IMG/VR virus record: IMGVR_UViG_3300023296_000219
Location: 1 to 57,915 of that record
Length of the DNA: 57,915 bases
From: a virus
Taxonomy: Duplodnaviria; Caudoviricetes
Direction: 5' to 3' (one strand)
Every line of letters begins with the position of its first letter. Within the stretch, counting starts at the first letter, position 1. The notes below the pieces were generated by a model, which was not told the DNA's origin, ran no database searches, and was given only the letters and a program-made list of their open reading frames with translations. A program made the position numbers and the translations under genes. Shown here piece by piece: positions 19,501-41,531 of the stretch.

Positions 19501-22500
19501 AATGACTTCTATCATTTGCTAGATATTGATTGAATTCTGTGCTATACTTGTAATTATCTAGGTCTGCGCCCAAGTTAAAGAAGTCTGCTGGTTTGGTTAA
19601 TGCAAATATTCGCATCAAATCAAAAGGATAAGATGCACTTCTTCTGTATGAAAATTCTGCTGGTGCGTCATCGCCGACTTTCCAATTTTTCTGGAATGTG
19701 TTAGTATCGTAATTTCCCAACAGCGCATCAAACGGTGACAGCAATGTTCCATGCTCATCAACTGGTAAGATTTTAGATAAACCGGTGCGTTTCAATTCAG
19801 GTACGGTTACTGATAGTGCAGTACTACCGTTATAGATGAGACCAGCTTCGATGTCTGTCCACATAATACCGTTTTGATTGGTGTAAGGTGCGGGACCATA
19901 CTGTGCAGTCCACCATGATGGTATTTCGGAGAAGCCTAACATCTCCCAAGGGGCCGTATTTGGCTGTGATGTGCCGTAGAAGTATTCATAGACACCTCTC
20001 CAATAACCTTGAGTAATTGGGGTTTCTGTTAGTCTGTTCCCTTGTTCTGAATAGTTAAAACTAAACTGGTTTGTTTTTGTATAGCCTGTTTGAGTTTTGT
20101 AATCAATTCTATTTTGACCAGCCCAGTTTAAAAACTGCGAACTGTAAATTTTTAAATAGTCTTCGGTAGAGTATGTTGATGCTCTGAAAAAGCCCGGTAA
20201 CACTTCGTATGCTTGTATAGGAACGACAGTGCTTAATTTAATGTTGTTGTATATTCTAGTTTCAAATTCCAACAGTGCTTGATCTCTGAAGTCAGTCAGA
20301 CCTACTGCAGGTGTGTAGTCTAAAGAATACAATGAGGTATAAGAACCATCATGTCCTCTTAACATGTAAGTAGGTGTTTGATAGTTAGAATCTAATACAA
20401 CTTCAGGTTTCCATTTAGGATACATGCCTAACTTACTAGGCGTATTGGGTACAAACGATCCATATGTTTGTGTGTACTCATTGATCGTGATCTTGTCACC
20501 AGCAATTAAGTCTTCTGTAACTGTCAATGAAGGTGCAGATGTTGAAACTGTATAGTCTACATTTCGCACTAATTGAGTTGTCTTGGTTACGCCCGATACT
20601 GTTCTTATAAGATAAACTAAAACTCCGTTATAGTTTGCTTTAGTGAAGTCATATGTTTGCGACAATGGATAGATAGACTCTTGCAATGCATTGGCGAATG
20701 TATAGATGTTTGACTTATGTGGTGCTTGCGACGGAAGCATATCACTCCAGAAAAACGAACCAGTTTCAGATTTTGCTGAAGTAAGTTTTTCTAATGCCGT
20801 GTCTAATATATAACCTGGATCAAATCGTTGGTCCCAATCGATGTCATTGACTGTTTTAACCAATTGTTGTTTGTACTGAACATACTGATGTGCATTAAAT
20901 TGTAATGCATCGAACAAATTATGATTTGATCTGCGCAGGAACACACTTGGCAATACCACCGCCGCAGAGTTTTGAATAATTTTAGTGCCATATGGAGCTA
21001 GATTACCTAAATCTCTGTAATTGTTTGAGCCAAAGACTGCTCCTGCTGTGCCTGGAGCATTAACGAATATGTCTTGATATTGTGATCTAATGTCACCAAG
21101 GTCTGCTATCTCTAAATCAGCATTGAATGGGTTGTTGCTTAAATTTATAGGTATGCTATAATAAGCAGTTTCCGATGTTTGGTTGCTCAACAACAAGATT
21201 TGTATAGGGGTATCTGTTGTCGGAGCTGTGTTTAATGTCACTGTAGTTTCAGTTGCAGTTGATGTTATTGTGTATGCACTAGGTAACTGGTATACGTTAT
21301 TAATATATACTTGGGCAGATGGCCACTTCTCAGTAATAGTAACATCATCTGCTAATACTTGAACGTCACACGTGAAAGAGGCTGTGGACCCTGTATTATA
21401 TTCTAGTTCAAATATTTGATACTGAACTGAGGGGGCAATGGCAGTTTGCCAGCCCAATTCACGTGTTTTCGTTGTACGATCAGAGTAATTATATACATAA
21501 CCCGTATTGACTTTTGCCGTGACAGGTGTCGTTCCAGTCACATAAGAAAAGATGTCAACATTCAATGATATATCAAAGCTAATATCGCCTGCGTTACTAA
21601 TATCAGAATAACGAACTGGGAATCCTAATATTGGGTCATTAGTGCCAACACCAACACCATATGCAAACAATTTGTTACCCAAAAACGAAGTTCCTTGATA
21701 AATTGTTGCATCGCCAAACGAGATTCCATCCTTATCATAGATGTCGAAAAGAGGAGCCTGGTTAACAGTTGATTTTTGCTGTGCTTCTTGCCATGATAGA
21801 CCGTCAAACCAGAATGTAGAACCTTGATAGTTGAATCCTCTGAGGGCTACAGTTTGATTGTCTGCATTAATAGGAGAGTCTTCTGATTCTGTTAATGTAA
21901 TAACAGCTGGTGATCCAAACGAGATCACTGAAAAGCCCACGACCCATATTTTGTTTTTAACTTGTAAATTGGTGTCTGATGCGAAGACGATTCTCGCTCC
22001 ACTGAACAACGCATAGTTGTTAACTGTTGTGCCGCTACCAACAATAGATGCTACAGTAGTGCTTGCGAAAGTAGATGGTGAAGACCAACCGACAGTCAGA
22101 ATTGTATTATCTCCACTGACTACACTTGTCGTAATCGTAGTATTAATCGGCAACAAGTTTGTTGAATCAGTAATGTATTGCCCAACTTGTAACGGCGAAG
22201 TAATGTCCGTGGTTGCAATGGTAATAGTAGTGGAGGTTGCGCCGGAGCTTGCCGCAATGGTCGCAGTGTATAATGTATATGATTCTATGTCAGGATAATA
22301 TTGTGCTTGATTGGCTACTTTATCAAAGGCGTTGGTGGTTCTTGTGTCTACGAAGTCAACTGGTGCTTTTGCTTCCGACCCTGAATCGAATAGTTTTAAA
22401 TTTGGATAGAATTCAACAATCGGTCTTTTTGCTTTTGCGGCACCCGTAGCATATGTTGTAATAATTGTAGGGTCGTTATTATACGTAGCAGTAGCATTTA

Positions 22501-24397
22501 TAACATCAACATGGAACCATCTGTTAGAGCGTGACCATGCATTTCTATTAATTGCATCTCTGGCTATCGTGATATAATCTGGAGTTACTGGAATAAACAA
22601 CTCTGTGTCAAAGTTGCCGATTGAATAATTCAAACTATCATAAGGTATGTAGTTTGTTCCAGTAAAGTCTTCTGGTACTGTTAGGTCTGTGGTAGATACA
22701 AGTTCAATTGCTTCACCTACGCCGGCTACATAATATTCACCAGTGAGGTAACTTGTTGGGCTAACATCACCATCAAATTGTATTTTTAATCCATTGGTAA
22801 ATACTACACCATTGGTTGATGTAAATGTTTTTTGTCCTATTATATCAGTAGTAACATCTAATGTGTTCGTCAGGTTACTATCAATTAATTTTATCATACC
22901 AACTTTGTTTGCAAACGTGCCGTCTTGATAGTACAAAGTGTCTAGTAAAGCCGACAGATAAGGAACACGCAACAAAATACCAACAAGACTTCTGTAAAAA
23001 TCTAAACCGATGTATGCAGTTCCGAAGCTTACCGTAATCTTTTCGTCAGATGGGATTACTCCAGCTGGGATTAAACGAATTGTTGGATCAGATGAATCAC
23101 CAACATACGTAATTGTATAGTAGTTTTCACTAACGTTAGTATAGAAGCCTTCATCAAACAAGCCTTCATTAACGTTTCCAATCATCGTTCCTGTGTTAGC
23201 AGTAAGAGTTTGTGCGGGTCCATTAAGTGTTAACGAGACTGTAAATTCTGTTGCACTAACGATAGATTTTACATAGTAAATTGTGTCGAGGGATAGTCCA
23301 CCTAGCAACGGTGCGCCCGCTGATGATGAAAACGTAATTGTTTGATTGGGAACCAGATCAGTAGTAACACCTGATGTAATTAGTTTATTTGTTCCACCAG
23401 CGACTGTTTCTGTGATTTCCAATGTAACTGCAGGAACCAAATCAGGAGATGTTAAATTAACATCATAGTTTGCTCCGCTCTCATCAAAGAATGATGATAC
23501 GAAACCTACTTCATTTTCCTCTCCTGTATCATAGAACATCACAGATAGATTTTCAAGTGACGTTACGCCATCTATGCTTCCTAGTTCGCTAAGAGTCTTG
23601 CCGTTAACGTCAGCAAATAATGCAGTGCTTACTACGCCAACTAAGTTGTTGCCTGGAAACAAAAATTGATCTTGTGCATTTCTGGCGGGAACTGTAAATG
23701 AAACATAACCATCTGTAGCACCGTTGTTGTTAACACCTAGAACTTGTCTAGTATCCTGTGCACCTGATAACCCTGTAGTTCCAGGTACGCCCTGAATCCA
23801 AAATTGAGTTTCTTGATCAACTGCGAAACGATATGTACCGCCACGAAGTAAGGTAACAGTTGGATTAAGTGTCCCTGAAGATGCGCCTAACAATTTTACA
23901 TTGTAAGCACTTGCCGTATCAGTGACTTTATAGTCTGTTTCTGAGAAGACAATAGCAGACGCAACTGTGACCACTGGTGGTCCTGCAGGTATCCAGTAGT
24001 ACTGGTTAAAATTAATTAGTTTATCTAATGCCGTGAAAGAATCCCAAGAATAGAATTGGCTTTCGAACAATCGACTATTGTTAAGCGTGACTCCGCCCTT
24101 AAGTTTAATCGCATCAATCAACTCTGGGTAACTTAGAAAGTCTTTTGCAGATGCTTGATTGTTGTTTAAGAATGCGACACCGGGAGACAACTGGTAATCG
24201 GTTCTCGTTTTGTTTGGCTCAGTTACATAGTAATCTTTTGCGTTGACACCATAACCAAACTCGCTTCCCACATAACCTTGCAATCTTTCTGTCTTTGGAG
24301 GATTAACTAGTTGGTCAAGTGTTGCTCCCAAGAACTGTGTATTCGTGGAAGTTTTGAATATCTCTGGTAAAAAATCTACTGTTCTTATTCTTGACAT
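4508..24397 (-). CDS. giant 6629-aa virion structural protein (baseplate wedge/fibre scaffold, gp7-position)
   Basis: Uninterrupted 19.9-kb ORF directly downstream of the gp6-like gene. It has ~15 copies of a G..YYV..I....F beta-domain repeat, propeller-like segments and five copies of a 46-aa module. Confidence 0.8.
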   Translation of the reverse strand: MSRIRTVDFLPEIFKTSTNTQFLGATLDQLVNPPKTERLQGYVGSEFGYGVNAKDYYVTEPNKTRTDYQLSPGVAFLNNNQASAKDFLSYPELIDAIKLKGGVTLNNSRLFESQFYSWDSFTALDKLINFNQYYWIPAGPPVVTVASAIVFSETDYKVTDTASAYNVKLLGASSGTLNPTVTLLRGGTYRFAVDQETQFWIQGVPGTTGLSGAQDTRQVLGVNNNGATDGYVSFTVPARNAQDQFLFPGNNLVGVVSTALFADVNGKTLSELGSIDGVTSLENLSVMFYDTGEENEVGFVSSFFDESGANYDVNLTSPDLVPAVTLEITETVAGGTNKLITSGVTTDLVPNQTITFSSSAGAPLLGGLSLDTIYYVKSIVSATEFTVSLTLNGPAQTLTANTGTMIGNVNEGLFDEGFYTNVSENYYTITYVGDSSDPTIRLIPAGVIPSDEKITVSFGTAYIGLDFYRSLVGILLRVPYLSALLDTLYYQDGTFANKVGMIKLIDSNLTNTLDVTTDIIGQKTFTSTNGVVFTNGLKIQFDGDVSPTSYLTGEYYVAGVGEAIELVSTTDLTVPEDFTGTNYIPYDSLNYSIGNFDTELFIPVTPDYITIARDAINRNAWSRSNRWFHVDVINATATYNNDPTIITTYATGAAKAKRPIVEFYPNLKLFDSGSEAKAPVDFVDTRTTNAFDKVANQAQYYPDIESYTLYTATIAASSGATSTTITIATTDITSPLQVGQYITDSTNLLPINTTITTSVVSGDNTILTVGWSSPSTFASTTVASIVGSGTTVNNYALFSGARIVFASDTNLQVKNKIWVVGFSVISFGSPAVITLTESEDSPINADNQTVALRGFNYQGSTFWFDGLSWQEAQQKSTVNQAPLFDIYDKDGISFGDATIYQGTSFLGNKLFAYGVGVGTNDPILGFPVRYSDISNAGDISFDISLNVDIFSYVTGTTPVTAKVNTGYVYNYSDRTTKTRELGWQTAIAPSVQYQIFELEYNTGSTASFTCDVQVLADDVTITEKWPSAQVYINNVYQLPSAYTITSTATETTVTLNTAPTTDTPIQILLLSNQTSETAYYSIPINLSNNPFNADLEIADLGDIRSQYQDIFVNAPGTAGAVFGSNNYRDLGNLAPYGTKIIQNSAAVVLPSVFLRRSNHNLFDALQFNAHQYVQYKQQLVKTVNDIDWDQRFDPGYILDTALEKLTSAKSETGSFFWSDMLPSQAPHKSNIYTFANALQESIYPLSQTYDFTKANYNGVLVYLIRTVSGVTKTTQLVRNVDYTVSTSAPSLTVTEDLIAGDKITINEYTQTYGSFVPNTPSKLGMYPKWKPEVVLDSNYQTPTYMLRGHDGSYTSLYSLDYTPAVGLTDFRDQALLEFETRIYNNIKLSTVVPIQAYEVLPGFFRASTYSTEDYLKIYSSQFLNWAGQNRIDYKTQTGYTKTNQFSFNYSEQGNRLTETPITQGYWRGVYEYFYGTSQPNTAPWEMLGFSEIPSWWTAQYGPAPYTNQNGIMWTDIEAGLIYNGSTALSVTVPELKRTGLSKILPVDEHGTLLSPFDALLGNYDTNTFQKNWKVGDDAPAEFSYRRSASYPFDLMRIFALTKPADFFNLGADLDNYKYSTEFNQYLANDRSHLDISAISIYGDGTAKTSYINWIVDFEKQQGTDATTEITSQLRNVDVRLIYRLAGFSDKTLLKFFVEKATPNSDNASLLLPDESYNVLLHDNQPSGDLKYSSVVIQLVSNGWKVFGNSQSQAYFTIDQPITISNNRTIAVDNASVKVANAYTQTETKEKLIPYGTQFYTIQELAQFLASYGNWLTRKGMVFDSIDNGVEINWDIMIKEYLYWTQFNWENGSLITVNPSAQSLKIEKDSEIVQPLTIEQSNFLLNQNAYPIAIKDLAIERLDTKFEVKTLNSGDTMSYGQFNLSNMEHGIVFDNTTVFNDVLYNLITGLRQSRIYLRGSKTAEWNGTVFASGFILNQDNVVEWVPAMKYAKGTIVTYKAKYWTAIKTIEPSAVFAELDWVETDYDQIQKGLLPNSSTRSYESTLYYDSTKANLESDADQLSFSLIGFRPRDYLATINLTDITQVNVYKNLIKTKGTPNSISAFKGAKLATGGIDYDVFENWGILSGEFGGTLNNNFADFKLNETKLTGNPSIVSLTTGTPTIGSQQEVPLGNLFNYSRPITSPQILSTLGVESPLSLYPTAGFVNYNDVKMASYYYANLPTARNAEAIPVPINDFYVRDFVWLANFKENWRVYAWKPVGRVTAVTPNTDNTTTITFANPHGLSKLDPVSFINVSSTVNGYHIITRVNTLTEVTINLTLAEQPQNLAGNGIGLTFVDQRVAKPADINTMDLNEAEFTQNTVWVDEATDGQWGVYRKSINYDLTKNLNRADGQTFGSAVAYTARMGYLIGDSTAGKVYRYGYNTATKEFDLDVGSTLTGSLSFGSKIEYSGNLFVITEPDNGTSGLAQSKVRIYTLNDTVLSDDITLLQTITFAGNYADSIALSDDKEWLYIGDTTTSGRIRAYRRQHIPLLAGFFETTETYEITSVGTTDWKAIGALDNKVGIVFVATGVGSGTGTANQITYQALPTTIEGSTAPVSAITGDNFGYAISTDNNGDTISVSAPNKASPTAKSNWGSNYIYSRLVQNIETQYNAQPAQPYNFNQAWTTLHVARTANDVTSNVITFVGTAITADFTNRPVVFNVGGTYGDSGISPNQVYYMQYISAQSFSLKTTRSTIDVITLVDDATADFILYDQADSLHVSVNGTFVDDNNYASIGTIFRYFGSLIAGDIVTVGSNVFTWVQTMNSSLDERVGTQFGYDNAMTSFGSEILVGAPGEIRIAGEVQTDGSVYRYTNGGGKYGTVIGTGDCTLTADRKLLINGYLVQLVSGSTATEIASLINEYSITNVVASATVDNKLVISVTNTNLALINEKLLLQAPNTDTFGELGIPVYTNTQVITAPHNESRTLFGNTIEFNESDSVVISAPASTRYLGTTFDFIDDSNLDNDTLFDNNATRFVDTWDNAGAVYMYDYLANYNGSVANSGKFVYAQNINNTDQNYGFQPLYGTSLDFSDNKVVIGTPNLSYGDLEGQITVYENASGLKDWALHRQSSAVVDINKIQNAQIYSAETNDTLINLDYIDPMQGKLLGAVRENLDFVNNVDPAYYNAELGGVNAGLIWGIRQVGNLWFDTTNVRWLNYHQNDVEYNARHWGRVFPGSRVSVCTWVRSNVSPDRYTGPGTPRSLTQYSVEASLNASNTVIPTYYFWVLNTDTVMSAEGKTLSDTTLENYIRNPRLSGIAYFVPLLQNTFALYNTGEYVNNTDSVFHIGFATGNNDDPSHQEFNLIRANFSDDFLPGLPKFGVQTPSNSPRGLYDRLLDSLSGVDEIGEVVPNPYLPKAVQSGVLSRPRQSFFFSRFLGLENYLNYANTVLAQFPIAETRQDATYLSKTGTYYDTTTYWEYVNWWLPTTNPVGQYNNNTKSTASVAIYADLAALVVDAGTIVTVETNGNGKWEVYRFDGNGVWTRIGLENGTIKFKIYLWDYAAGKTGFGENFFDTDTYDDYPSEETRWIIRALNEQIYIDELVSFRNKSLIILFEYIQSETDESQNYLPWLTKTSLVDVSHVIRDLEPIQNYQGDNQDFLAGYINEAKPYHVVIKDFLFKYTGLDTWQGNVTDFDLPAEYQTSSLSYVSPQLVYQNANSNAQFLPIDPIWSSPQYTSWYNNYGVSITGIPDYQLTVLGEYMTLGSTFLFVDNAQGFPINGIIQIGTEIIGYSSVDRALNLLSGLQRGINGTTAVAHIPGAKVFMDLPAVIVLDGGKNYIEPPEITAYIDTTNYPEPRVLAQLEAVMSVGSVISVNVINPGEGYAVLPEIRIAPADQLFFANADINSTLHTIKLFAPNIMTGDLIQYKDAIAGAAVGKLVNDQWYYINVLETNPTTIVALYTNYNDAVTETSRVKLVAGTVDGDFALNIGAKASAITSSSPVRQNQLAMRFDRTTYKSQITDWETNVYYGSFFAGGYFNSENVSSSSISLQASQPPITSIAASAEGAIFEIADISNNQDILYTTFARRVTNTTATGNKITLNPYDEGTGAVNSSGSTIGFTVGMPIKFSGATIGNIIAGTVYYVKSVDSITEFTISATNGGTTFVVTDATAPLSGIDAFAGEVTDTAVLTLNYPGMLIVTATASTSNKITIPQSIIGTGGTDGFYPGIPLFFTGTTFGGILEDDVYYVTTVVDNETITLGASATSVSTTVLGTTTSTNVVTVSSTTGFAVNDAVIFNNMRNLSTNLVALSYGGIVSGTLYYVNEVVSDTELKIATQINAGVLALSDAFLIDAGSFTIGNTYQIVTVGTTIFTDIGAINNTVGTVFIATGVGAGTGVATSTTALLGNQKDTLDLTTATGAMTMNVSLPIAPGQVTGQQFTLYNTSSFYSDITTGVLSNTIDRACYATLEGDVGEGTNDRIALSNLDNGTINFYVGMPLEFNTVPVGSGLATGTTYYVRDFSDPDDKTTYISVSCSTTSSSTNEITCLDTSSLWVNMPIIFSGIGLGNIIIGDQYYIKAIVDATHFTIATTPGGSAYDLLTDNGVMTGTGSPWVRLNDISDAIIPISADTNTEFSLTQTPTTSAIVDMAFKLGGYRAILSNAGVGYAITNKITISGAEIGGTTPANDATLEVNTVSSTGAITSLIVAGDPADKVTKYFLKITTANQLEVYSDARMTVPVSGIGFDFVGFTSTDVVETFEPSNKIELTDISGFTVNDEIVFMGTIPVDGGGNPYFASTTSTSYYIKTIDTADDTIQISLDPGGSVINVAVSSVTPVTGLTIAKAGSYAFLPEPFYFNQSIVKYLNRVYRCTISNNDTEFVIGKWEELRSDDRVLNALDRVEGYYRPTVNMPGLDLTQLFSGVTYPNAVYLGNAFAPEDQYSIDTELKGQDFYPTGVSITSVLWDGTNYLASSNLSTYSGLLTSGAGTNWTIKQIASSVVGITDIVLGAGIYVMSSTNTATPIYRSSDGIIWTTNSSALTIPAVQLNSVAYRNNYFVAVGDEIVQSDDSYAWLSRKTYDTELAVTLYGVQSVDTSGFAGFIAVGKGKKKDYSTGLTELIDTNIIVYSYEATGEFWQDGPSLTPNGFNAVDSDGTIALVVGENNVVYQTNNGGSWTGVNEVSVVSVNSVTDQINSTSTAGFLNSDQIVFSDSFSSLTAGVVYYVKVISSTQVEIYSNVGLSTQITLIDDVIPLQCRMSLYDSTAQTLRDVIYADSIWMTVGDNGRIQTSADGLIWTTQTSGTTSDLNGINYNSDTDAFIVVGDDNTIIQSTDAGVTWISTSVFTVAEPIYDVKGADFSYGYGPEELVPGLIKDNLTMTVASRPGTVWDVTEYSHVGYNVVSNIMGPTTEFQVDYSFDQMVQYPINLSLQIIDATTGLGTTLAKSNYTINWLTKVITLDTALTFLPMQTLRIDVYEVGNGNQLVKGSTDTDAIRTVDETGFDDIYVNCNYSSTFFQGSGLIRTGSHAIETLATQTVADGDIIVCDSVTDFTINDDISFQGVVFGNIVGDTTYYVKSISTATSSITISESIVSGQAGPTFILVDATGSMIVNIDTGTGTVWTDPIVYHNGNKLVLGRTNSVSRTKASNNAITTGTTVGLVVGSRIYFAATMFGDVTPNTEYYVKAIIDGDEFTISETIGGPEATLIDASGVSAYVSNDYAIAQQPNGIQAKLVFGPPNSYTNETDYIVYSLFGESATATQYGYSVPEIQEFTGNGSSASFALTNYVGDNNITNAIVEVAGLRQTRSQYTISSGLNTILFNSPPAIGASISVLTYNDTMRQYLTSQYGISGIAGSAFTTITVTATTHTEGTFDQGVATLAGDFNIGTEYTIVSTGTTDFTLIGAANSTPGTVFEATGAGTGTGTARATLQAYNQGDLSSTAGNFVAGVTYTIVSTGTTDFTLIGAANSTPGTVFEATGIGAGTGTATSTTVAGDFNIGVTYIIVSTGTTDFTLIGAADSNPGTVFVATGIGIGTGTGTATITVTYDELLDTLTCTDTSVLTVDEPIVFSNPTIGGITAGITYYILEIIDATTFTVSLSIGGIQVTVTTDSGSMVGTSNAITVANISNIDTAVSAPLANTNATATAVTTNVITFTSTVGFVVDQTIFFTGTNFGNLEQGTIYFVDTVSLDGTTATIKDSGGTQVVLAPGSGNMLVEVGGSPTTRITTGIPHALANDILCTIDGTLGSVGLNGNSYYVKIIDATRFDIYTQVYNPGLDAVNYPVTGISTYVSGGYVWRQGTFFLTTTVASETSVTNDLITVASTADLVVNTPVIFTQQGQQAGATVLGGLIQGTTYYVKSIDVNGVDFSVGATRSATTTITLTNETGTMNVTQWEQTNVDRLWVTVNGYRLPNNKLKISSDNEVSLLTDIAPGDVVIMTNMIPYSTPNEEIYLNLVNASQEASIYRANVQTRTWLSASIEVLAQNVFVGDVTRVTNSIIQNVLAPTPVDSIYSIGLTSEKTILSSVVVLNTTTGVTLSSSTYSVEIENLAPILKITDGAYISVNDSLTITSIEGATMYINGEQINFASVDFDNNSVGGLQRGANGTAMQTVIPKYTEVFSLLSANKLSSVYYNQTWNSYEFNTIQGDPLQISNTVSAQFLQTDIT
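6381..6862 (-). repeat. three tandem copies of a ~46-aa coding module, including an 87-bp exact repeat (6566-6652 = 6749-6835)
   Basis: Direct sequence comparison; peptide AG(D/N)FxxGxxYxIVSTGTTDFTLIGAAxSxPGTVFxATGxGxGTGTA. Confidence 0.92.
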
Positions 24398-35296: not shown

Positions 35297-35325
35297 TTGC
35301 AAATACGTATGCATTTATGTACAAT
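35297..35325 (+). promoter_or_regulatory. sigma70-type promoter TTGCAA-N17-TACAAT
   Basis: Near-consensus hexamers with a 17-bp spacer upstream of the gp55-like gene. Confidence 0.6.
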
Positions 35326-35370
35326 CAACTATTAGACCTTGACAGGTCTTTAACCAATAAAGGAATATTA

Positions 35371-36309
35371 ATGCCAGCACCAAGAAAAACAGTCAATTAT
35401 TTAAATAACAAGGACATTTTAAAAGAGATTCACAAAAGTAAAACATCATATTGCTATTTTACCAAGAAAGAGTACAATGCATATGATTCCATCATTGATC
35501 TCCCAGACGATACCCTCGAAAAAGCCCTGACTTGGTGCATCAAACCTACCCAACTTAAAGAAGCAAAATTAATGAAGAGCCTTAGGCTTTCGGCAGAGCA
35601 AGGATTGGCTGGAAAAAACAAAATTGACCCAAAAACTATCGAAACTGATGGATTGATGTTTCGGGTAATGACTTGGGAACACATTCCCGTTGCCAAGAAG
35701 CAACCTAGAAAAGTTGTTAAGAAAAAGAAAGCGATTGATATCATCGATTTTGAAAATGATTTAGAACCGAACACAGATTTGTTTGCAGAGAACGAAGATA
35801 AAAAGTCAGATGTAGTTGTTGATGATTTCGTTCATGTTAAGGTCAATTTCCCACCATTTCAACATTATATGTTAGATGCCGAGACAATGACGTTATCCTT
35901 GGTTGGTAAATCTCATTGGACTGGTGGCCTCAAGACAGGTAATTTTACCGCAACAAACGGTAGCCTAACCGATAAACTTGCACGTATGTATATCATGTTA
36001 TGTGAAAAATATGCTATGAAGTTCAATTGGCGTGGCTACACCTACAATGATGAGATGAGACAGAGTGCTATTTTACAATTAACTTATGTAGGCTTACGAT
36101 TTAATGAATCCAAGTCTGCAAACCCCTTTGCATACTATACTGCGGCTATCACCAACAGTTTTTGTAGAGTACTAAACTCAGAAAAACGCAACCAAAACAT
36201 CAGAGATGATATCCTAGAAATGAATGGGTTGAATCCGTCATTCACGCGCCAAATGAAAGATTATAATGGCATGGGACATGAGACCAAACAAGAAACCTAT
36301 TCTGAATAA
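35371..36309 (+). CDS. late-transcription sigma factor, T4 gp55-like
   Basis: N-terminal YLNNKD.L and C-terminal NWRGYTY.DEM...F...KS.NPFAYYT...NSF...EK motif; precedes gp47/gp46 as in T4. Start taken at the ATG after AAGGA. Confidence 0.88.
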   Translation: MPAPRKTVNYLNNKDILKEIHKSKTSYCYFTKKEYNAYDSIIDLPDDTLEKALTWCIKPTQLKEAKLMKSLRLSAEQGLAGKNKIDPKTIETDGLMFRVMTWEHIPVAKKQPRKVVKKKKAIDIIDFENDLEPNTDLFAENEDKKSDVVVDDFVHVKVNFPPFQHYMLDAETMTLSLVGKSHWTGGLKTGNFTATNGSLTDKLARMYIMLCEKYAMKFNWRGYTYNDEMRQSAILQLTYVGLRFNESKSANPFAYYTAAITNSFCRVLNSEKRNQNIRDDILEMNGLNPSFTRQMKDYNGMGHETKQETYSE

Positions 36310-36324
36310 TTCAATTTGGGGAAA

Positions 36325-36370
36325 TAAAGCAACCTAATTAGTTGCTTTACCTACCTGTAAACTGTATAAT
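36325..36370 (+). promoter_or_regulatory. sigma70 promoter TTGCTT-N17-TATAAT with an inverted repeat overlapping the -35
   Basis: -35 at 36342-36347, -10 at 36365-36370; inverted repeat TAAAGCAAC...GTTGCTTTA at 36325-36349. Confidence 0.65.
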
Positions 36371-36392
36371 AGAAGACTGGAAAAAACTAACT

Positions 36393-37409
36393 ATGGAAAA
36401 TCTTTTTAAGAAAGCGGCAGTATTTACGGACATACATTTCGGATTAAAGAGCAATAGCATTCAGCACAATCGAGACTGTGCTGATTTTGTGGATTGGTTC
36501 ATCGAACAAGCTAAAGCAGAAGGGTGTGAAACCTGTCTCTTTTTGGGAGATTGGAATCATCACCGAGCCAATATCAACATGCATACTTTACAATTCGGAT
36601 TAAATGCATTAGAAAAACTCAACGATGCATTTGACACAGTGTACTTCATTACGGGCAACCACGATCTCTATTATAGAGACAAACGAGACATTCATTCAGT
36701 CGAATGGGCAAAACATCTCAAAAATGTTGTCATAGTCGATGATTTTTTAGAAAAAGGCAACTGCGTTATAGCACCTTGGTTATGCGGCGAAGACTACAAG
36801 CTACTTAGAAAGAAAACAGGCAAGTATTTGTTTGCCCATTTAGAACTTCCTTACTTCTACATGAATGCAATGGTTCAAATGCCTGATCATGGTGAAACAC
36901 ATGCTGATCACTTATCGCATTTTGGTACAGTGTTTTCAGGACATTTTCATAAACGACAATATGAAAAGAATGTTTGGTATATGGGCAACGCTTTCCCTCA
37001 CAACTACGCAGATGCAGGCGATGATGCTCGTGGCATGATGATATTAGGGTGGGACGAAGAGCCAATCTTTCGTTCGTGGCCCGGCCAGCCTGTATACAGA
37101 GTTTACAAGCTAAGTGAAATCTTAGAAAACCCTGAAGGATTGCTTGTTAAGAACGCACACATCAAAGTTCACTTAGACATTGATATATCGTATGAAGAGT
37201 CTAATTATATCCGAGAACAACTCATTCCTGAATATGGATTAAGAGAAATGTCACTGATTCCTATAATGAACGAAGAATATACGCAGGATTTATCTCCTGG
37301 CGATATTTCATTCGAGAGTGTTGACTCTATTATCATCGATCAAATAGAAAAAATAGAAAGCGATTTTTACGACAAAGGTATATTACTGGAGATTTATCAG
37401 GCACTATGA
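36393..37409 (+). CDS. recombination endonuclease subunit, gp47/Mre11/SbcD family
   Basis: Metallophosphoesterase motifs DIHFG, FLGDW, GNHD, AHL, SGHFH. Confidence 0.93.
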   Translation: MENLFKKAAVFTDIHFGLKSNSIQHNRDCADFVDWFIEQAKAEGCETCLFLGDWNHHRANINMHTLQFGLNALEKLNDAFDTVYFITGNHDLYYRDKRDIHSVEWAKHLKNVVIVDDFLEKGNCVIAPWLCGEDYKLLRKKTGKYLFAHLELPYFYMNAMVQMPDHGETHADHLSHFGTVFSGHFHKRQYEKNVWYMGNAFPHNYADAGDDARGMMILGWDEEPIFRSWPGQPVYRVYKLSEILENPEGLLVKNAHIKVHLDIDISYEESNYIREQLIPEYGLREMSLIPIMNEEYTQDLSPGDISFESVDSIIIDQIEKIESDFYDKGILLEIYQAL

Positions 37410-39172
37410 TAAAATTAAAAAACATAACACTTAGAAACTTTTTAAGTGTTGGATCTGTGACACAGGGAGTTGATTTAGATAATAAAGAGTTGACCTTGAT
37501 CTTAGGTGATAATTTAGATTTAGGTGGTGATGGTGCTAGAAATGGTACTGGTAAGACTACGCTTATACAAGCGGTTAGTTATGCATTATATGGCACTGCT
37601 CTTAATAGCATCAAACAAAACAACCTCATTAACAGAACAAACGGCAAAGGCATGATGGTCACGTTAGAATTTGAATGTCATGGTATAGAGTATCGTATTG
37701 AACGTAGTCGGAAGCCAAATGATCTGAAATTCTATATTAATGGAACAGAAGAAACAGACAATGAAGCGCAAGGCGAAAACAGACAGACGCAAGAAACGAT
37801 AGATAGCATTCTTGGCATGTCTCCTACTATGTTTAGGAACATTATAGCACTTAATACATACACGTTGCCTTTCTTAAGCATGCCTGTTGGTCAACAAAGA
37901 GACATCATAGAGCAGTTATTAGGTATTACTCTGTTATCAGAGAAAGCCGAAAAAATAAAGATAGTTATAAAGAAAACTAAAGATGATATGCAACATGAAG
38001 AAGTAAGAATTCAAGCTGTTGAAGAGGCTAACAAAAGAATAGAAGAACAAATAAACAGTCTTAAGAGTAGAGAGCGACTATGGAATGCAAAACATTCAGA
38101 AGATATAACTAAACTAACAAACACTGTTGAAGAATTAAAGAAAATAGACATTGATGCAGAGTTACTTGGACACACCCAACTCAAAGTACACACTCAATTA
38201 ACAAAAGATCATGCAGACATTGATAGATCGTTGACCAGAACACAAAATGATCTCAATAAAGAAGGAAAAACTAGTGAAAAGCTAGGAAAAGAATTAGAGA
38301 TACTAGAAACAAACAAATGTCATACCTGTGGTCAAGACTTTCACGATGATGGACACGTTAAAGTCGTAGACAACAAGAAAGACTCATTAACAAGCATCAA
38401 TGCTCATTTAGAGGAGCTTGCCGAACTGTTTGTGGAACTAGAAAAAGAAAAAGAAAAATTGGGTGCTGTTGGTACGCGTCCAAACGTTCATTATAGTTCA
38501 GAAAGTGAGGCTATTGAACACCAAAGCCAAATTAAAAACATAGAATGGCAAGTAGAGCGCAAAACACAAGAAGAGAATCCGTATACAGACCAAATCGTCG
38601 ATATGGAAGCTAATGCATTACAAGAGTGTAATTTCGACAAAGTTAACGCATTATCACGTGTAGCTGATCATGAGAAGTTCTTGTTAGATTTACTAACAAA
38701 CAAAGATTCATTTGTGCGTAAGAAGATAATTGATCAAAACTTGTCATATTTAAACGCCAGACTGACTTCATACTTAGATAAGATGGGTTTACCACACCAA
38801 GTTGTGTTCCAAAATGATTTAACCGTTGAAATTACGGAATTGGGTAGAGAATTAGACTTTGATAATTTATCAAGGGGTGAGCGCAACAGATTGATCTTGG
38901 GCTTGTCTTTTGCGTTCAGAGATGTTTGGGAAAACTTATACTGTCCAATAAATGCGCTATTCATTGACGAGTTAATCGATTCGGGCCTAGATACAATCGG
39001 GGTTGAGAATGCAATGACTATACTTAAAGACATGACACGCAGACGCAACAAGTCTATCTGGCTAGTATCTCATAGAGAAGAGCTAGCTGGAAGAGTTCCT
39101 AGTGTGTTACAGGTCATCAAAGAGAACGGGTTCACTACATATAATACGACGAGAGAGATGGAAAATCTGTGA
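37406..39172 (+). CDS. recombination ATPase subunit, gp46/Rad50/SbcC family
   Basis: NFLS, Walker A NGTGKTT, coiled coil with CHTC zinc hook, LSRGE signature, FIDE Walker B, VSH. Confidence 0.95.
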   Translation: MIKLKNITLRNFLSVGSVTQGVDLDNKELTLILGDNLDLGGDGARNGTGKTTLIQAVSYALYGTALNSIKQNNLINRTNGKGMMVTLEFECHGIEYRIERSRKPNDLKFYINGTEETDNEAQGENRQTQETIDSILGMSPTMFRNIIALNTYTLPFLSMPVGQQRDIIEQLLGITLLSEKAEKIKIVIKKTKDDMQHEEVRIQAVEEANKRIEEQINSLKSRERLWNAKHSEDITKLTNTVEELKKIDIDAELLGHTQLKVHTQLTKDHADIDRSLTRTQNDLNKEGKTSEKLGKELEILETNKCHTCGQDFHDDGHVKVVDNKKDSLTSINAHLEELAELFVELEKEKEKLGAVGTRPNVHYSSESEAIEHQSQIKNIEWQVERKTQEENPYTDQIVDMEANALQECNFDKVNALSRVADHEKFLLDLLTNKDSFVRKKIIDQNLSYLNARLTSYLDKMGLPHQVVFQNDLTVEITELGRELDFDNLSRGERNRLILGLSFAFRDVWENLYCPINALFIDELIDSGLDTIGVENAMTILKDMTRRRNKSIWLVSHREELAGRVPSVLQVIKENGFTTYNTTREMENL

Positions 39173-39297
39173 AATTACCCAAAATTAATTTTAAGAGGCC
39201 TAGTTTATACACGGCTCTTACGAATACCAGACAAAATACAGTACTAAAATTGTGAATAAAAATTATACCACTCAATGGTAGGGAGATAATTAGTAAT

Positions 39298-39963
39298 ATG
39301 CCATCACCATCAAAAAACAAAGGTTCAGGATACGAACGAGACATCGCAAAATATCTAAGTGAACTATACAAAGAAAGTTTTATCAGAGCACCTGGCTCTG
39401 GTGCTTATGTTGGTGGCAAAAATCAATCTCGTACAGAGATACTACATGAAGGCCAGATTAGAAGTTTTAAAGGGGACATTGTTCCTGGACAAAGTTTTGT
39501 CATGCTTAATGTAGAATGTAAATTTTATGCAGACTTTCCGTTTCATCAGGTACTGGCAGGATCATGTAAACAACTTGATTCATGGTTAGACCAATTAATG
39601 GACGTAGCTGATGAAGGCGACTTAAATGTTCTTTTTATGAAATTTAATCGTAAAGGCAAATTTGTTTGCGTACCTAGCAGATATACATGGGTAAGTGATC
39701 AATTTATGTATTATACTTCCAAATATCATGCTGATTGGATTTTAGTAGAGCATGATCATTTTTTCAAACACAACAAAGATATATTTAAAGCATACTCAGG
39801 CAAACCAGAGACCAACTCAAACCCACCAGAGAACAACTCAAACCCACCAGAGAACAACTCAACCTCGTCAGAGAACAACTCAAACCCACCAGAGAACAAC
39901 TCAACCTCGTCAGAGAACAACTCAAGCCCAATAGAAACTAAAACTACAGCTATAAAGATTTAA
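39298..39963 (+). CDS. Holliday junction resolvase, Hjc-like PD-(D/E)xK nuclease, with repetitive C-terminal tail
   Basis: K.KG..YER.IA..L, SGA, GDI...ECK motifs. Confidence 0.8.
   Translation: MPSPSKNKGSGYERDIAKYLSELYKESFIRAPGSGAYVGGKNQSRTEILHEGQIRSFKGDIVPGQSFVMLNVECKFYADFPFHQVLAGSCKQLDSWLDQLMDVADEGDLNVLFMKFNRKGKFVCVPSRYTWVSDQFMYYTSKYHADWILVEHDHFFKHNKDIFKAYSGKPETNSNPPENNSNPPENNSTSSENNSNPPENNSTSSENNSSPIETKTTAIKI
39805..39930 (+). repeat. six tandem 21-bp units ((c/t)cagagaacaactcaa...) encoding (P/S)ENNSxx
   Basis: Direct reading of the sequence. Confidence 0.95.
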
Positions 39964-39964
39964 T

Positions 39965-40328
39965 ATAACATACATTTAGTATGGTCGTGATTTATACTCG
40001 ACCCTCCTTGAGGAACCTGTGTCATGCAGGCGACGGAACTGGAGTAGTGTCTATTTATAGACACATAAACCGACAAGGCAATCGTTATGGTAGCGAACCT
40101 TGAATGAGTTCATATATATTTTGATTTGATGATATGAAACATGCGTTGCCGAGAGGTTACATTTATTAGTGTAATCGACTCAACTACAACCCAGCAAACT
40201 TTACAGGGCAACCGGTAGCAATTGATTATAGTAACGTAATCGATTGGGGATAATCAACATGGGACGACGGGAACAATAGTCCGCCGATCATTGGTAGTGT
40301 TTAGAAGCACTACCATGGCTCTCAAAAA
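39965..40328 (+). ncRNA. candidate large structured non-coding RNA
   Basis: No ORF of 60 aa or more; at least eight consecutive stems, several with G-U pairs on the + strand, plus a long-range GTTGCC/GGCAAC pairing. Confidence 0.55.
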
Positions 40329-40420
40329 ATAATAATACAAAAACAAAATTATAATCATCCAGTATTTAAATTTATTACTTTGAAAGAAAAATTATGATTG
40401 AACGAAGTGAAAGAGTAATT

Positions 40421-40439
40421 AAGTTCTCGAAGAGAACTT
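40421..40439. other. perfect hairpin AAGTTCTC-GAA-GAGAACTT
   Basis: 8-bp inverted repeat with a C-GAA-G loop between convergent units. Confidence 0.7.
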
Positions 40440-40464
40440 CTAAACAAGACCAATATAAGGTTGT

Positions 40465-40662
40465 TTAGAAGAATGGTATTTGTGTTTTCTTTGTAGTTTC
40501 CAGGTGTTCTTCTACTAAGGCACTGATAGTTTTTCTTTCTGATACCGACATATTGAGAATGTCTTCATAGGACGCACCACCTCGCATGTACCAAGACATG
40601 GTCAATGCATTTGACTTGATTCCCTGGGTGTAATTTTCGTAATCGTTGATCAACTCCCTCAC
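40465..40662 (-). CDS. small gp51-like ORF; probably the -1 frame extension of the upstream gp26-like gene
   Basis: WYMRGG.SY.D..NM...ER motif. GTG start lacks an SD and is buried in a hairpin; the frame is open back to the slippery site. Confidence 0.65.
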   Translation of the reverse strand: MRELINDYENYTQGIKSNALTMSWYMRGGASYEDILNMSVSERKTISALVEEHLETTKKTQIPFF

Positions 40663-40701
40663 CCCATCAGGGTCGAGTGAAAGGAGTCTTAGACGAAAAA
40701 A
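40653..40701 (-). promoter_or_regulatory. putative -1 programmed ribosomal frameshift signal
   Basis: T TTT TTC in frame at 40701-40695, a 7-nt spacer, then a stem-loop at 40687-40653. Confidence 0.7.
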
Positions 40702-41531
40702 TCCGATGCGTTTAGTGTGAATGGTTGCGTATATACATGTTCACATTCAGTACAGGTAATTGTCAGTGGCTTGATAGTACTTTTTGATCTGAGTTCTACG
40801 TTATGATCACGAATTGCTTCGTATGTTGTAGTATCACAGTTCTGCAAGAAATCAAGTATGAATTCTGTTTCTGTCACCTCTGAATCGGGTGTTATTACCT
40901 TGGTGATTGTATCTGATAAAATTTCCATAGTTAATGATGTGATATCTATCAATGCATTTTTATTTGCTTCATTGCGTTCAGTAGTGTCTTCTATTTGGGG
41001 TGTATTTTTGTACTTGCCTTGAATGTCAAACTGTTTTAAAGCCGCTTTATTCATGGTTGAATACTGTATAGGACCAAAGCATATTTTTAAATCACCTATA
41101 GGTAAAGGAGTTTCATAATCACCCTTCGAAATAGATCGCAGTAATACTTGTAGGTTAATACCATAAGTACCTGGAATCGCGCACTCCTCATTTGTACACA
41201 CAGACTCGACATCAATTGTTTCTTGTCCACCTGCCGCTTTAATAGAGATGAGAACACTATCTAGGTCATTACTCAATAGATTCCATGGATTTTTGATTGC
41301 GGGAATACAACTCTTGATAAGTTCTACCATAGCAGAACCGTTAAACAATGCATCTGGTGTTTTTGTTGTTATCTCATCAATGGCTGTCATCGGATAAACA
41401 GGCAGTTCTCTTGTATCTGCCGGAAATTCAATATCGTCACTTGTGTATGCTTCACCACCAGAAGGTAGAGTTAAATGTACTGCGGGTCTACGAAAGAATT
41501 GACGTAGGGGATTACTGTTGTTGTTTTCCAT
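40689..41531 (-). CDS. baseplate hub assembly/tail assembly chaperone, T4 gp26-like
   Basis: LPS.G..Y, PMT..DE, two Cys pairs (CTNEEC, CTEC) and a C-terminal DFF; divergent from the tape measure gene. Confidence 0.75.
   Translation of the reverse strand: MENNNSNPLRQFFRRPAVHLTLPSGGEAYTSDDIEFPADTRELPVYPMTAIDEITTKTPDALFNGSAMVELIKSCIPAIKNPWNLLSNDLDSVLISIKAAGGQETIDVESVCTNEECAIPGTYGINLQVLLRSISKGDYETPLPIGDLKICFGPIQYSTMNKAALKQFDIQGKYKNTPQIEDTTERNEANKNALIDITSLTMEILSDTITKVITPDSEVTETEFILDFLQNCDTTTYEAIRDHNVELRSKSTIKPLTITCTECEHVYTQPFTLNASDFFV

Follow-up and report, generated by a model that had tools for sequence, protein, structure and literature searches.

The locus examined here raises the question of what fills a long stretch with no substantial gene in an otherwise crowded phage genome. 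The window, by which the whole 57,915-nucleotide stretch of IMG/VR record IMGVR_UViG_3300023296_000219 is meant, contains a rightward gene block (35317..39963, + strand) whose members were assigned with Pfam and PHROGs: a gp55-like late sigma factor (35317-36309), an SbcD/gp47-like gene (36342-37409), an SbcC/gp46-like gene (37406-39172) and a PDDEXK_15 "resolvase" (39298-39963), in which the domain is mostly present (profile positions 2-127 of 164). Converging on this block from the minus strand are late genes, namely a small ORF (40465-40662) and a gp26-like baseplate hub gene (40689-41531; T4_baseplate in Pfam, baseplate hub in PHROGs). Between the resolvase stop at 39963 and the next ORF of at least 60 amino acids (40465-40662, minus strand), the ORFs present measure just 32-40 amino acids. 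Among ORFs of at least 100 amino acids, the gap at 39963-40689 is the widest in the window, as had been claimed in an original prediction that placed here a structured phage RNA of some 360 nt, possibly of an undescribed class. The claim that the region is more GC-rich than its AT-rich 3' flank likewise holds, with a GC content of 0.40-0.41 over the element and 0.26 over positions 40300-40499. The sole repeat listed near the element is a coding repeat at 39804-39930.

The gap almost certainly houses a real structured RNA gene of ~350 nt (39982..40336, + strand), as conservation and covariation show. A single-sequence nhmmer search matched 79 of 80 loci fetched via the resolvase protein, the one miss being a contig that ends at the gene (L031). 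A profile matched 199 of 200 loci, including all 120 viral stretches that were found by the 3' hairpin pattern alone, and the whole element is present in every one of these 120 that is not cut by a contig end. The resulting family set, drawn from IMG/VR contigs, comprises 187 full-length copies and 118 distinct sequences in 74 clusters at 90% identity. Pairwise identity among the 118 distinct copies falls as low as 43%, and about 57 positions of the element are invariant in all of them. Six matches to the 3' hairpin pattern in GTDB cellular genomes were judged to be chance occurrences in GC-rich sequence; the profile matched just the ~30-nt hairpin in two of these stretches and nothing in the other four, and Rfam identified only tRNAs, elsewhere in the loci.

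A curated alignment (A2) of the family contains 66 pairs in 13 helices, with 97.7% of 7733 cells paired and changes on both sides in 46 pairs (1097 cells). None of 500 shuffles reached any of five pairing measures, and a control in which the partner was shifted by 1-3 columns gave 29-44% pairing with 76-160 double-change cells. In an unsupervised G-test/APC scan of 70,500 column pairs, the helix pairs and both pseudoknots described below rank at the top. The + strand of the window's own copy has a minimum free energy of -103 kcal/mol, against -85.2 +/- 4.75 for shuffled sequences (z -3.75, with 0/100 as good); for the minus strand the comparison with shuffles gives z -2.67, with 3/100 as good. 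The original prediction had staked its case on conservation and covariation among syntenic relatives and on folding better than shuffled controls, and both are seen here. It had also described the mismatches as chiefly G-U on the + strand, which is true family-wide: G-U cells number 229 and A-C cells 17, and the + strand is therefore the RNA.

These figures also bear on the reading in which the region is not an RNA at all, but a protein-coding gene in an odd frame or a set of palindromes acting at the DNA level. Stop-free runs of at least 80 codons do occur in some frame in 29 of 118 copies, and the 3'-most hairpin (hairpin H) is an invariant inverted repeat. However, the runs are inconsistent in frame and strand, and across loci the ORFs overlapping the element, where there are any, agree neither in frame nor in strand nor in extent. 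Element lengths fall into all three modulo-3 classes (41/31/46 of the 118 copies), no reading frame across the element is conserved among the family copies, and neither codon periodicity nor three-base periodicity of variability is detected in the family alignment. Given as well the compensatory changes in 1097 cells and the ratio of G-U to A-C cells, a non-RNA explanation retains a vanishingly small probability; the element is a non-coding RNA. Tiny ORFs in the area (of the MASKR type after hairpin H, and one of 24 codons at 40395) were rejected, as they are not conserved.

All nine stems of the original prediction lie where they were placed, and each has its counterpart among the consensus helices of the family. 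Helix A, the CTCC/GGAG helix, the two pseudoknots, hairpin G and the conserved tail to ~40336 are absent from its list. The 5' domain consists of P1, P2a/P2 and P3. P1 (GGTCG/CGACC, 39982..40003) is highly variable in stem sequence, with 84 distinct sequences in 118 copies, and a hairpin of at least four stacked pairs is predicted in all 118; in most relatives it is preceded by a conserved ATAAAAATT. The P2a helix (CTCC 40004-07 with GGAG 40041-44) has four pairs with 100% of cells paired and encloses P2 (40004..40044 in all). P2 itself (CCTGT/GCAGG, 40016-40030) lies beside the conserved joining strands TTGAG and GACGGA.CT, contains covarying pairs at A2 columns 63-90 and 67-86, and takes the stem forms GCC/GGC, GCU/AGC, GCG/CGC and GUACAG/CUGUGC across the family. 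P3 (GTGTCTA/TAGACAC around TTTA, 40047..40064) forms a hairpin in 118/118 copies, with 77 distinct sequences and long insertions in six copies. It is capped by a GNRA tetraloop in 72/118 copies, the window's own copy being without one.

The centre of the molecule is a four-way junction (40068..40217), supported by RNAalifold, the G-test/APC covariation scan and pair counts, in which helices A, B, C and D meet, with hairpin E as an inner element. Outer helix A (40068-72/40213-17) closes the junction and has double changes in three of five pairs. Hairpin B (CAAGG/CCTTG with TCG/CGA, 40074-40102) has them in six of eight, hairpin C (TTCATAT/ATATGAA, 40104-40142) in 11 of 11, and the long-range helix D (GTTGCC 40145-50 with GGCAAC 40207-12) in four of six. 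Helix D encloses hairpin E (GGTTACA/TGTAATC, ~40152-40182), which forms a hairpin in 116/118 copies with 88 distinct sequences, and two conserved UACAG-type strands (40183-89 and 40198-40206). Hairpin E was left out of R1, a covariance model built solely from the window's family, because no single register applies across subgroups. R1 scores 131.7 bits at 40063-40220 and has no other match in the window.

The 3' domain comprises hairpins F, G and H, tied onto the core by two pseudoknots, both recognised by covariation. PK1 joins the CCC inside helix D (40190-92) to the GGG after hairpin F (40247-49); all three pairs have changed on both sides and 98.8% of cells are paired, with pair types such as UA in 71, CG in 26 and AU in 8. 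PK2 joins the loop of hairpin C (TTGATT, 40121-26) to the strand beside PK1 (AATCAA, 40252-57), with both sides changed in five of six pairs and 97.7% of cells paired. Hairpin F (CAATTGATTAT/..ATCGATTG, 40219..40245) has both sides changed in nine of 11 pairs. Hairpin G (40259..40291), a short GGK/MCC stem with a purine-rich loop and stem forms GGG/CCC and GGU/ACC in the alignment, is the weakest helix, with at least four stacked pairs in 61/118 copies when the region is folded alone. The pseudoknots may serve to gather the many invariant unpaired nucleotides, which are located in the CAA/A internal loop of hairpin B, in the GC joint linking hairpin C to helix D, in both UACAG strands and in a GGAA-type strand 5' of helix A.

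The 3' end is different in character. Hairpin H (TGGTAGTGT/GCACTACCA) and the conserved tail TGGCT.. (40292..40336) are near-invariant in sequence: six of the nine stem pairs never vary, the sole changes are to G-U (in 8 and 10 sequences), and GCACTACCATGGC in the hairpin H region is the same in 118/118 sequences. No compensatory changes were found in hairpin H among the 118 distinct copies. The indications of its pairing are thus complementarity and the G-U variants alone, so that this sequence may have a role at the DNA level or in protein recognition, and the invariant hairpin together with the CCAUGGC tail could be the recognition site for a partner. The covariation scan gives no support to pairing of the 5' flank with the 3' tail.

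The gene is single-copy and fixed in place. R1 has exactly one match in each of five IMG/VR genomes of 303-525 kb, as it has in the window. In every locus, the element shares its strand with the gene upstream and begins 3-26 nt past that gene's stop codon. Of the loci found by pattern that extend far enough, 98/99 have the resolvase immediately 5' of the element on its own strand, and 102/102 have a gp26-like gene downstream on the opposite strand. That each genome examined in this 300-525 kb clade has one copy, always at the same place, argues for a function that is hard to lose. Outside the clade, R1 has no match in five cultured jumbo phages (SCTP-2, Phosso, PA5oct, Atu_ph07 and RsoM2USA), all of which carry PDDEXK_15 relatives; in SCTP-2, the next gene begins 12 nt past the resolvase homologue. 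Neither the region nor the sister clade's RF01718 RNA (vide infra) and "type B" block had a blastn match among GenBank phages, and there is therefore no experimental system at hand.

The proximity of the element to the upstream stop codon is one reason to consider a cis-acting 3' element of the gp55-gp47-gp46-resolvase transcript, that is, a structured 3' UTR. The roles to be considered for such an element are blocking 3' exonucleases, directing processing and helping termination. Co-transcription with the gp47/gp46/resolvase unit, which the original prediction had inferred, is plausible from strand and spacing, and no promoter belonging to the RNA itself was recognised: a scan for sigma-70-type sites gave two where 3.9 are expected from shuffles, none of them convincing, and the late-type CTAAATAC-like motif that precedes structural genes does not occur on the + strand 5' of the RNA. 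The junction is convergent, and a terminator-like hairpin called for the minus strand in the AT-rich spacer (40421..40439), ~100 nt further on, is common to both converging transcription units. No intrinsic terminator lies directly 3' of hairpin H; within 400 nt, 19/113 relatives have a + strand hairpin plus T-rich tail that passes strict criteria, in 15 of those 19 at 50-149 nt after hairpin H. Known stabilisers need far less than the four-way junction, the two pseudoknots and the ~57 invariant positions seen here, which argues against a 3' UTR element, as does the retention of the RNA where the upstream gene has been exchanged, for radical SAM/SPASM/GIY-YIG in L148 and for GIY-YIG in the RF01718 clade. 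This explanation is considered unlikely.

The exchange of the upstream gene also bears on a second proposal, in which the RNA would partner the small nuclease encoded upstream, as its cofactor, guide or regulator, and perhaps the gp46/gp47 complex as well. A small nuclease gene lies directly 5' of the RNA in all clades examined: PDDEXK_15 in the 98/99 loci given above and SegE-like GIY-YIG both in L148 and in the RF01718 clade, where a GIY-YIG gene occurs in 83/98 loci found with an RF01718-derived pattern. PDDEXK_15 also precedes other non-coding stretches (L263, L265 and L267), and the sequence 3' of the conserved tail is variable across the family in a guide-like manner. However, the finding of two unrelated nuclease folds in the same slot argues against a specific RNA-protein fit, the PDDEXK_15 relatives of the five cultured jumbo phages occur without the RNA, and a common gene order is in any case expected among related phages. 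A dedicated nuclease partner is accordingly judged rather improbable.

The same junction can be read as a replication origin or a primer RNA, which was the alternative offered by the original prediction. The structured transcripts of ColE1 RNA II and the T4 origins form persistent RNA-DNA hybrids, T4 oriF lies near genes 25/26, and by analogy a hybrid might persist here in the AT-rich stretch right after the element (GC 0.26 at 40300-40499), with recombination and replication genes adjoining. However, the junction is convergent rather than divergent, the spacer 3' of the element shows neither iterons nor repeats, and the covariation, which tolerates G-U, together with the pseudoknots and the unchanging unpaired bases suggests a folded RNA rather than a primer that forms a hybrid. 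Nothing in the analysis favours an origin or primer, and its probability is put very low.

Whether the RNA belongs to a known family has a less simple answer. At the gathering threshold, Rfam gives no match in the whole window; at E values up to 10, it gives one chance snoRNA match in the region and two unrelated weak matches in 12 diverse family members. The model of Polynucleobacter-1 (RF01718) in particular has no match in the window at its gathering threshold (37 bits), and none at E up to 10 in 39700-40750 or in the 12 diverse members. The positive control was clear: an RF01718-derived pattern recovered 98 viral stretches, and 20/20 of those tested with the RF01718 model, all from a sister clade, were identified as RF01718 at 44.9-92.4 bits. 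These loci have the same junction as the window, with a gp46-like gene (84/98), a small nuclease (GIY-YIG in 83/98), the RNA and a converging gp26-like gene (78/98). Judging from the name of the motif, phages of the RF01718 clade may infect freshwater Betaproteobacteria.

Kinship between the two is seen in the core. R1 matches three loci, L273 (24.2 bits), L274 and L276, at the syntenic place, and the stretch directly 5' of this match is identified as RF01718 (46.9 bits, the gathering score being 37). Within the RF01718-pattern stretches, R1 matches at E up to 1 are on the same strand and 52-58 nt past the pattern in 17/17 cases. In the other direction, R2, a model built solely from the RF01718 clade, matches the window at 40063-40178 (19.3 bits, E 0.009); in all, it finds the core position in six of nine members of the window's family tested, the window included, missing three. 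These cross-family covariance matches are weak in absolute terms, at 15-26 bits. In the RF01718 clade, the conserved core follows 7-8 nt after the Rfam motif. Common to both clades are two hairpins, B, which has a CAA-type internal loop, and C, whose loop makes the downstream PK2 pairing, as well as the GC joint, helix D and a UACAG before an AACCG strand, and in the distant relative L273, a PK2-equivalent pairing is recognisable by eye.

The two lineages differ towards both ends. Their 5' domains have no detectable relation at E up to 10, that of the window's family being ~85 nt with P1, P2a, P2 and P3 and that of RF01718 141 nt. Helix A and PK1 are confined to the window's family, whereas the RF01718 clade has GGG/CCC bracketing UACAG..AACCG, and hairpin H with its invariant tail is likewise absent from the RF01718 clade. 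The Rfam entry covers the 5' third of a ~385-nt conserved stretch in its own clade. Given reciprocal core matches at the same junction, the window RNA is therefore taken as a divergent variant of a larger RNA family that the Rfam entry truncates, and its relationship to the RNA of the RF01718 clade is held to be very probable. The suggestion of an undescribed class consequently stands insofar as no Rfam family matches, and is modified insofar as the core is related to the sequence that follows RF01718.

This relationship also brings in a regulatory interpretation. In the table of the 2010 survey in which Polynucleobacter-1 was reported (Weinberg et al.; PMC2864571), the motif is marked "y" under cis-regulatory, and that row, in the portion of the article available, is the only mention in the literature searched. 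A 5' leader or riboswitch of the downstream gene would fit that likely cis-regulatory rating, and a ligand pocket could be accommodated by a four-way junction with pseudoknots, but there is no + strand ORF of at least 30 amino acids between 40330 and 40690, and the next genes converge on the RNA in 102/102 loci of the window's family and in 78/98 RF01718-pattern loci. A leader function is thus highly improbable. No description of the window RNA was found in the full-text literature. A catalogue of 10,006 viral candidate RNAs (PMC10690425) mentions, in its available text, candidates upstream of resolvase/RusA and none downstream, and its supplementary tables may list the element; the available part of a recent preprint (10.64898/2026.10.21.760802) does not mention it.

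The best explanation overall, with a probability of roughly 0.7, is that the element is a compactly folded non-coding RNA of ~350 nt, present in single copy and representing a divergent variant of a wider RF01718-linked family. It is a gene of an uncultured clade of T4-like jumbo phages, placed at the end of the gp55/gp47/gp46/small-nuclease block. Few large RNAs combine a four-way junction with two pseudoknots and dozens of invariant unpaired bases, and most of those that do have historically proved to be ribozymes or the cores of ribonucleoproteins. The RNA may act in trans as a ribozyme or as the RNA core of a protein complex, a narrower proposal to which somewhat less than even odds are given. 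A bolder version, advanced as speculation and thought doubtful, is that this is an old and near-universal RNA gene of freshwater T4-like phages, that RF01718 is a fragment of another of its lineages, and that the whole represents a new ribozyme or ribonucleoprotein core. Its scope would include jumbo phages, and unmatched non-coding blocks at the same junction in sister clades may be further lineages; the role envisaged is in phage DNA recombination, replication or packaging, possibly with the adjacent structure-specific nuclease.

The analysis also reveals the orphan Rfam motif Polynucleobacter-1 of 2010 as just the 5' third of a larger phage RNA, and places it in T4-like phages beside recombination genes. 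The window RNA provides a testable family for probing, cryo-EM, self-cleavage and binding assays, and can serve as a marker gene for uncultured phages of an abundant group.

Among known large RNAs, the original prediction had found no fit to tRNA, tmRNA, RNase P or an intron, and further searches agree. ARAGORN detects no tRNA or tmRNA gene in the window. A tmRNA was rejected on this result, on the lack of an Rfam match and on the ends of the molecule, both of which are local hairpins: in tmRNA, the 5' and 3' ends form an acceptor-like stem, whereas those of the window RNA do not pair. Bacterial RNase P RNA was rejected because its model has no match at E up to 10 in 13 members; the GGAA-type strand before a long-range helix and the ACAG before its 3' partner may nonetheless resemble the CR-I and CR-V regions of RNase P. 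A group I intron was rejected in the absence of an Intron_gpI match and of flanking exons, as the ORF on its 5' side is complete and its 3' side has none on the + strand; the order of helices also does not fit P3-P7 topology. Taken together with conservation, covariation and the asymmetry between G-U and A-C cells, the ARAGORN and Rfam results support the predicted multi-domain + strand RNA.

ROOL, GOLLD, OLE and raiA, which have no Rfam match in the window or in 12 diverse members, suggest a further way in which the element might work, namely by analogy as an "ornate" RNA that assembles with itself into homo-oligomeric particles. Copies might touch through conserved loops or through the CCAUGG palindrome at the base of hairpin H. 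The element is a large and complex phage RNA with many conserved unpaired nucleotides, an invariant self-complementary CCAUGG and a GNRA-capped P3 in 72/118 copies. However, the CCA of CCAUGG already has its pairing partners inside hairpin H, ARAGORN finds no tRNA genes nearby, and ROOL and GOLLD are larger than ~350 nt. These points, with the missing Rfam match, make self-assembly of this kind rather improbable. The analogy itself draws on the available part of PMC12286853, according to which ROOL, GOLLD and OLE form RNA-only homo-oligomers.

In overall character, the window RNA nonetheless resembles RNase P RNA, tmRNA and group I introns in size, in long-range helices and pseudoknots, and in the GNRA-capped peripheral hairpins that recur in the window's family. 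With ROOL and GOLLD, as described in the available text of PMC12286853, it shares its large size, its pseudoknots, its many conserved unpaired bases and its association with phages.

The element lies on the plus strand at 39982-40336, directly 3' of a plus-strand PDDEXK_15 'resolvase' ORF with its stop at 39963. The interval from the resolvase to 40465 contains ORFs of 32-40 amino acids only; the next sizeable ORF is a small one on the minus strand (40465-40662), and it is followed by the gp26-like baseplate hub gene (40689-41531, minus strand). The block 5' of the element comprises, in order, a gp55-like late sigma factor, SbcD/gp47-like and SbcC/gp46-like genes and the resolvase. At its 3' end, the resolvase ORF contains a 21-nt tandem repeat (39804-39930, plus strand; six copies, 84% matches) that gives the protein a PENNSN-like tail, which is peculiar to this genome, since relatives align to residues 1-181 of 221 only. 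The window is a 57.9-kb piece of the virus record, with a completeness estimate of 17%. It also includes a single ORF of 6629 amino acids (4508-24397, minus strand) and then more large ORFs on the same strand (1121, 823 and 722 amino acids), and giant proteins of this kind would fit a jumbo phage.

The resolvase protein was used as a query to fetch 80 related IMG/VR loci. A 364-nt stretch directly 3' of the resolvase gene, on the same strand, is present in 79 of these, and the remaining contig is cut at the end of that gene. A 20-letter pattern from the invariant 3' hairpin detected at least 120 further viral stretches, and in all of those listed the whole element is present wherever the contig extends far enough. 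Among the matches listed, the set comprises 187 full-length copies (118 distinct), which form 74 clusters at 90% identity, with a lowest pairwise identity of 43%. The same pattern matched six stretches in GTDB genomes, in two of which the profile matched the short hairpin only; all six were judged chance matches in GC-rich sequence. GenBank phages gave no match to the element region. R1, a covariance model covering the core of the element, detects exactly one copy per genome in five IMG/VR genomes of 303-525 kb and one in the window, and none in the five cultured jumbo phages that carry the nearest cultured resolvase relatives.

In the alignment of the 118 distinct copies (A2), G-U outnumbers A-C in paired cells by 229 to 17. 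The RNA is thus read from the plus strand, and the G-U excess first noticed in a single sequence extends to the family. The element does not look coding-like: overlapping ORFs are absent or inconsistent in strand, frame and extent, element lengths are spread over the three classes modulo 3 (41/31/46), and the variability of the family has no three-base periodicity. On these grounds, the stop-free runs of at least 80 codons found in some frame of 29 of the 118 copies are read as chance.

Every stem named in the original prediction was found in the sequence, and the tests of folding and covariation bore the prediction out. The plus strand folds at -103 kcal/mol, compared with -85.2 +/- 4.75 kcal/mol for dinucleotide-shuffled controls (z -3.75, none of 100 as good), and the minus strand gives a z of -2.67. 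RNAalifold, applied to 55 sequences, predicts 52 pairs, 26 with compensatory changes. Covariation was assessed by pair counts and by an unsupervised G-test/APC scan of 70,500 A2 column pairs, in which helix pairs rank top. Over 66 well-aligned pairs, 97.7% of 7733 cells are paired, with both-sided changes at 46 pairs (1097 cells); pairing falls to 29-44% when partners are slid by 1-3 columns, and none of 500 shuffles equals A2 by any measure.

The model begins at its 5' end with P1, followed by P2, enclosed by P2a (CUCC/GGAG), and P3. A four-way junction is formed by helix A, which closes it, hairpins B and C, and helix D; inside helix D lie hairpin E and two strands of UACAG type, and the 3' part of the model consists of hairpins F, G and H. 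The scan also revealed two pseudoknots, PK1, in which CCC within helix D pairs with GGG past hairpin F, and PK2, between the loop of hairpin C and a strand adjoining PK1. Hairpins that MAFFT left out of register were examined one sequence at a time. P1 and P3 form in 118/118 copies and E in 116/118, with 84, 77 and 88 distinct sequences respectively; P2 forms in 105 of 118, and the weak hairpin G in 61. A GNRA tetraloop caps P3 in 72 of the 118 copies, the window's own not among them, and six have long insertions in P3. The stem of hairpin H and the AUGGC after it are invariant in A2, with G-U variants only. Three columns (232, 398 and 415, corresponding to 40068, 40200 and 40217) covary together, with states UUA (67 of 118), CCG (14), AAU (13), CUG (7) and UUG (6), such that two of the columns are each complementary to the third. 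This suggests a base triple (of the U.A-U / C.G-C type) or alternative pairings where helix A ends.

The architecture, the many invariant unpaired bases and the strict single-copy retention argue for the fold as a putative functional unit. The element may therefore be a ribozyme or ribonucleoprotein core that would work in trans, a reading to which we give, on sequence evidence, a probability of about 0.4-0.5. An ornate RNA that assembles with itself is an improbable account of the same architecture, and a primer or origin RNA, also raised in the original prediction, is more doubtful still.

Surveyed by the RNA pattern alone, among the matches listed, the resolvase lies upstream in 98/99 loci and the gp26-like gene converges on the element in 102/102. 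The sole exception for the resolvase, locus L148, carries genes for radical SAM, SPASM and SegE-like GIY-YIG proteins in its place (5786-7161). That the element belongs to the upstream operon as a 3' feature acting in cis was considered and is regarded as unlikely, if the strongest of the alternatives. A terminator-like hairpin is located ~105 nt past hairpin H in the window, and a comparable plus-strand hairpin with a T-rich tail occurs in 19 of 113 relatives under strict criteria. A 5' leader is the least likely alternative, and a very improbable one, because no plus-strand gene follows the element in the window and the next genes converge on it.

No promoter could be assigned to the element by looking for sigma-70-type sites and for a late-type motif. 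A CTAAATAC-like motif recurs ahead of many structural/late genes, for example back-to-back between 41531 and 41638, and is also seen in three related loci (L037, L060 and L112); it probably serves as a late promoter for the gp55-like sigma factor (gene at 35317-36309). This motif is absent 5' of the element on the plus strand. Immediately ahead of P1, ATAAAAATT.GT is conserved in most relatives (A2 columns 1-27), and a subgroup has CAGAACCCU..ACAUUG in its place (example loci for these sequences are L112, L132, L093, L136, L157 and L090). Neither resembles the late-promoter motif, and they may represent a promoter or a processing site, or else belong to the RNA itself.

The window contains no tRNA or tmRNA detectable by ARAGORN and no Rfam match at the gathering threshold. 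With E values up to 10, the element region gave one snoRNA match, taken as chance. Full-text literature searches found no description of the element, which may already sit in the supplementary tables of PMC10690425, where 10,006 candidate viral RNAs are catalogued.

When the search was extended outwards from a divergent member, with its gp26-like protein as query, most of the loci reached again hold the element, and in three, with gp26 only 32% identical, weak R1 matches occur at the syntenic place. Immediately 5' of the match in one of these (L273) is the Polynucleobacter-1 motif (RF01718; 46.9 bits, with the gathering score at 37). In the literature searched, PMC2864571 alone mentions this motif, in a table row that reads 'Burkholderiales, fresh water/estuary'. 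A pattern derived from RF01718 detected 98 viral stretches, and the family was confirmed in 20/20 tested (44.9-92.4 bits). R1 matches in this set are on the same strand in 17/17, 52-58 nt past the pattern, and begin 7-8 nt beyond the point where the Rfam match stops. In this clade (L284-L381, e.g. L292 3463-3757 and L293 1508-1803), the conserved stretch is ~385 nt, so the 141 positions of the Rfam family cover its 5' third only; in the remainder, hairpins B and C are accompanied by a GGG/CCC pairing that flanks UACAG..AACCG and by additional hairpins towards the 3' end. The gene order (gp46-like, a small nuclease that here is a SegE-like GIY-YIG, RNA, converging gp26-like) matches that of the window. 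As judged from sequence, this shows the catalogued motif to be truncated and to belong to T4-like phages.

A GIY-YIG gene is present in 83 of the 98 loci, and in L273 (4086-4720, minus strand) the SegE-like GIY-YIG ahead of the RNA is itself preceded by an Hc1-like histone-like protein; as in L148, the slot can hold genes other than the resolvase. That the RNA is a putative partner of the adjacent small nuclease appears improbable, to the same degree as self-assembly.

At the same resolvase/gp26 junction, sister clades have other ORF-free blocks of 490-670 nt on the minus strand of the locus, each conserved within its own type: type B (L261 3553-4170, L263 3553-4129, L266 3500-4169, L267 3836-4354) and type C (L265 3550-4042, L268 3550-4052). 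Neither type is matched by nhmmer, R1, Rfam or R2, a covariance model of the RF01718 clade core alone. Type C and the window's RNA have short similarities, e.g. GUGGAGUAAG and CAACAAGUCU, and both types may represent additional lineages of the gene for that RNA.

The RF01718 model itself gives no match on the window's RNA. R2, however, matches 40063-40178 of the window with 19.3 bits (E 0.009) and, in all, the core position in 6/9 members of the window's family. These scores are weak, and the case for kinship of the two cores is built on the unvarying register, on reciprocal matching and on common synteny. Hairpins B and C, PK2, the GC joint, helix D and the UACAG..AACCG strands are common to both RNAs, whereas helix A, PK1 and hairpin H are found in the element and not in the RF01718 clade, and the 5' domains are not common. 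We regard the element as probably a divergent form of an already catalogued, so far uncharacterised type of RNA.
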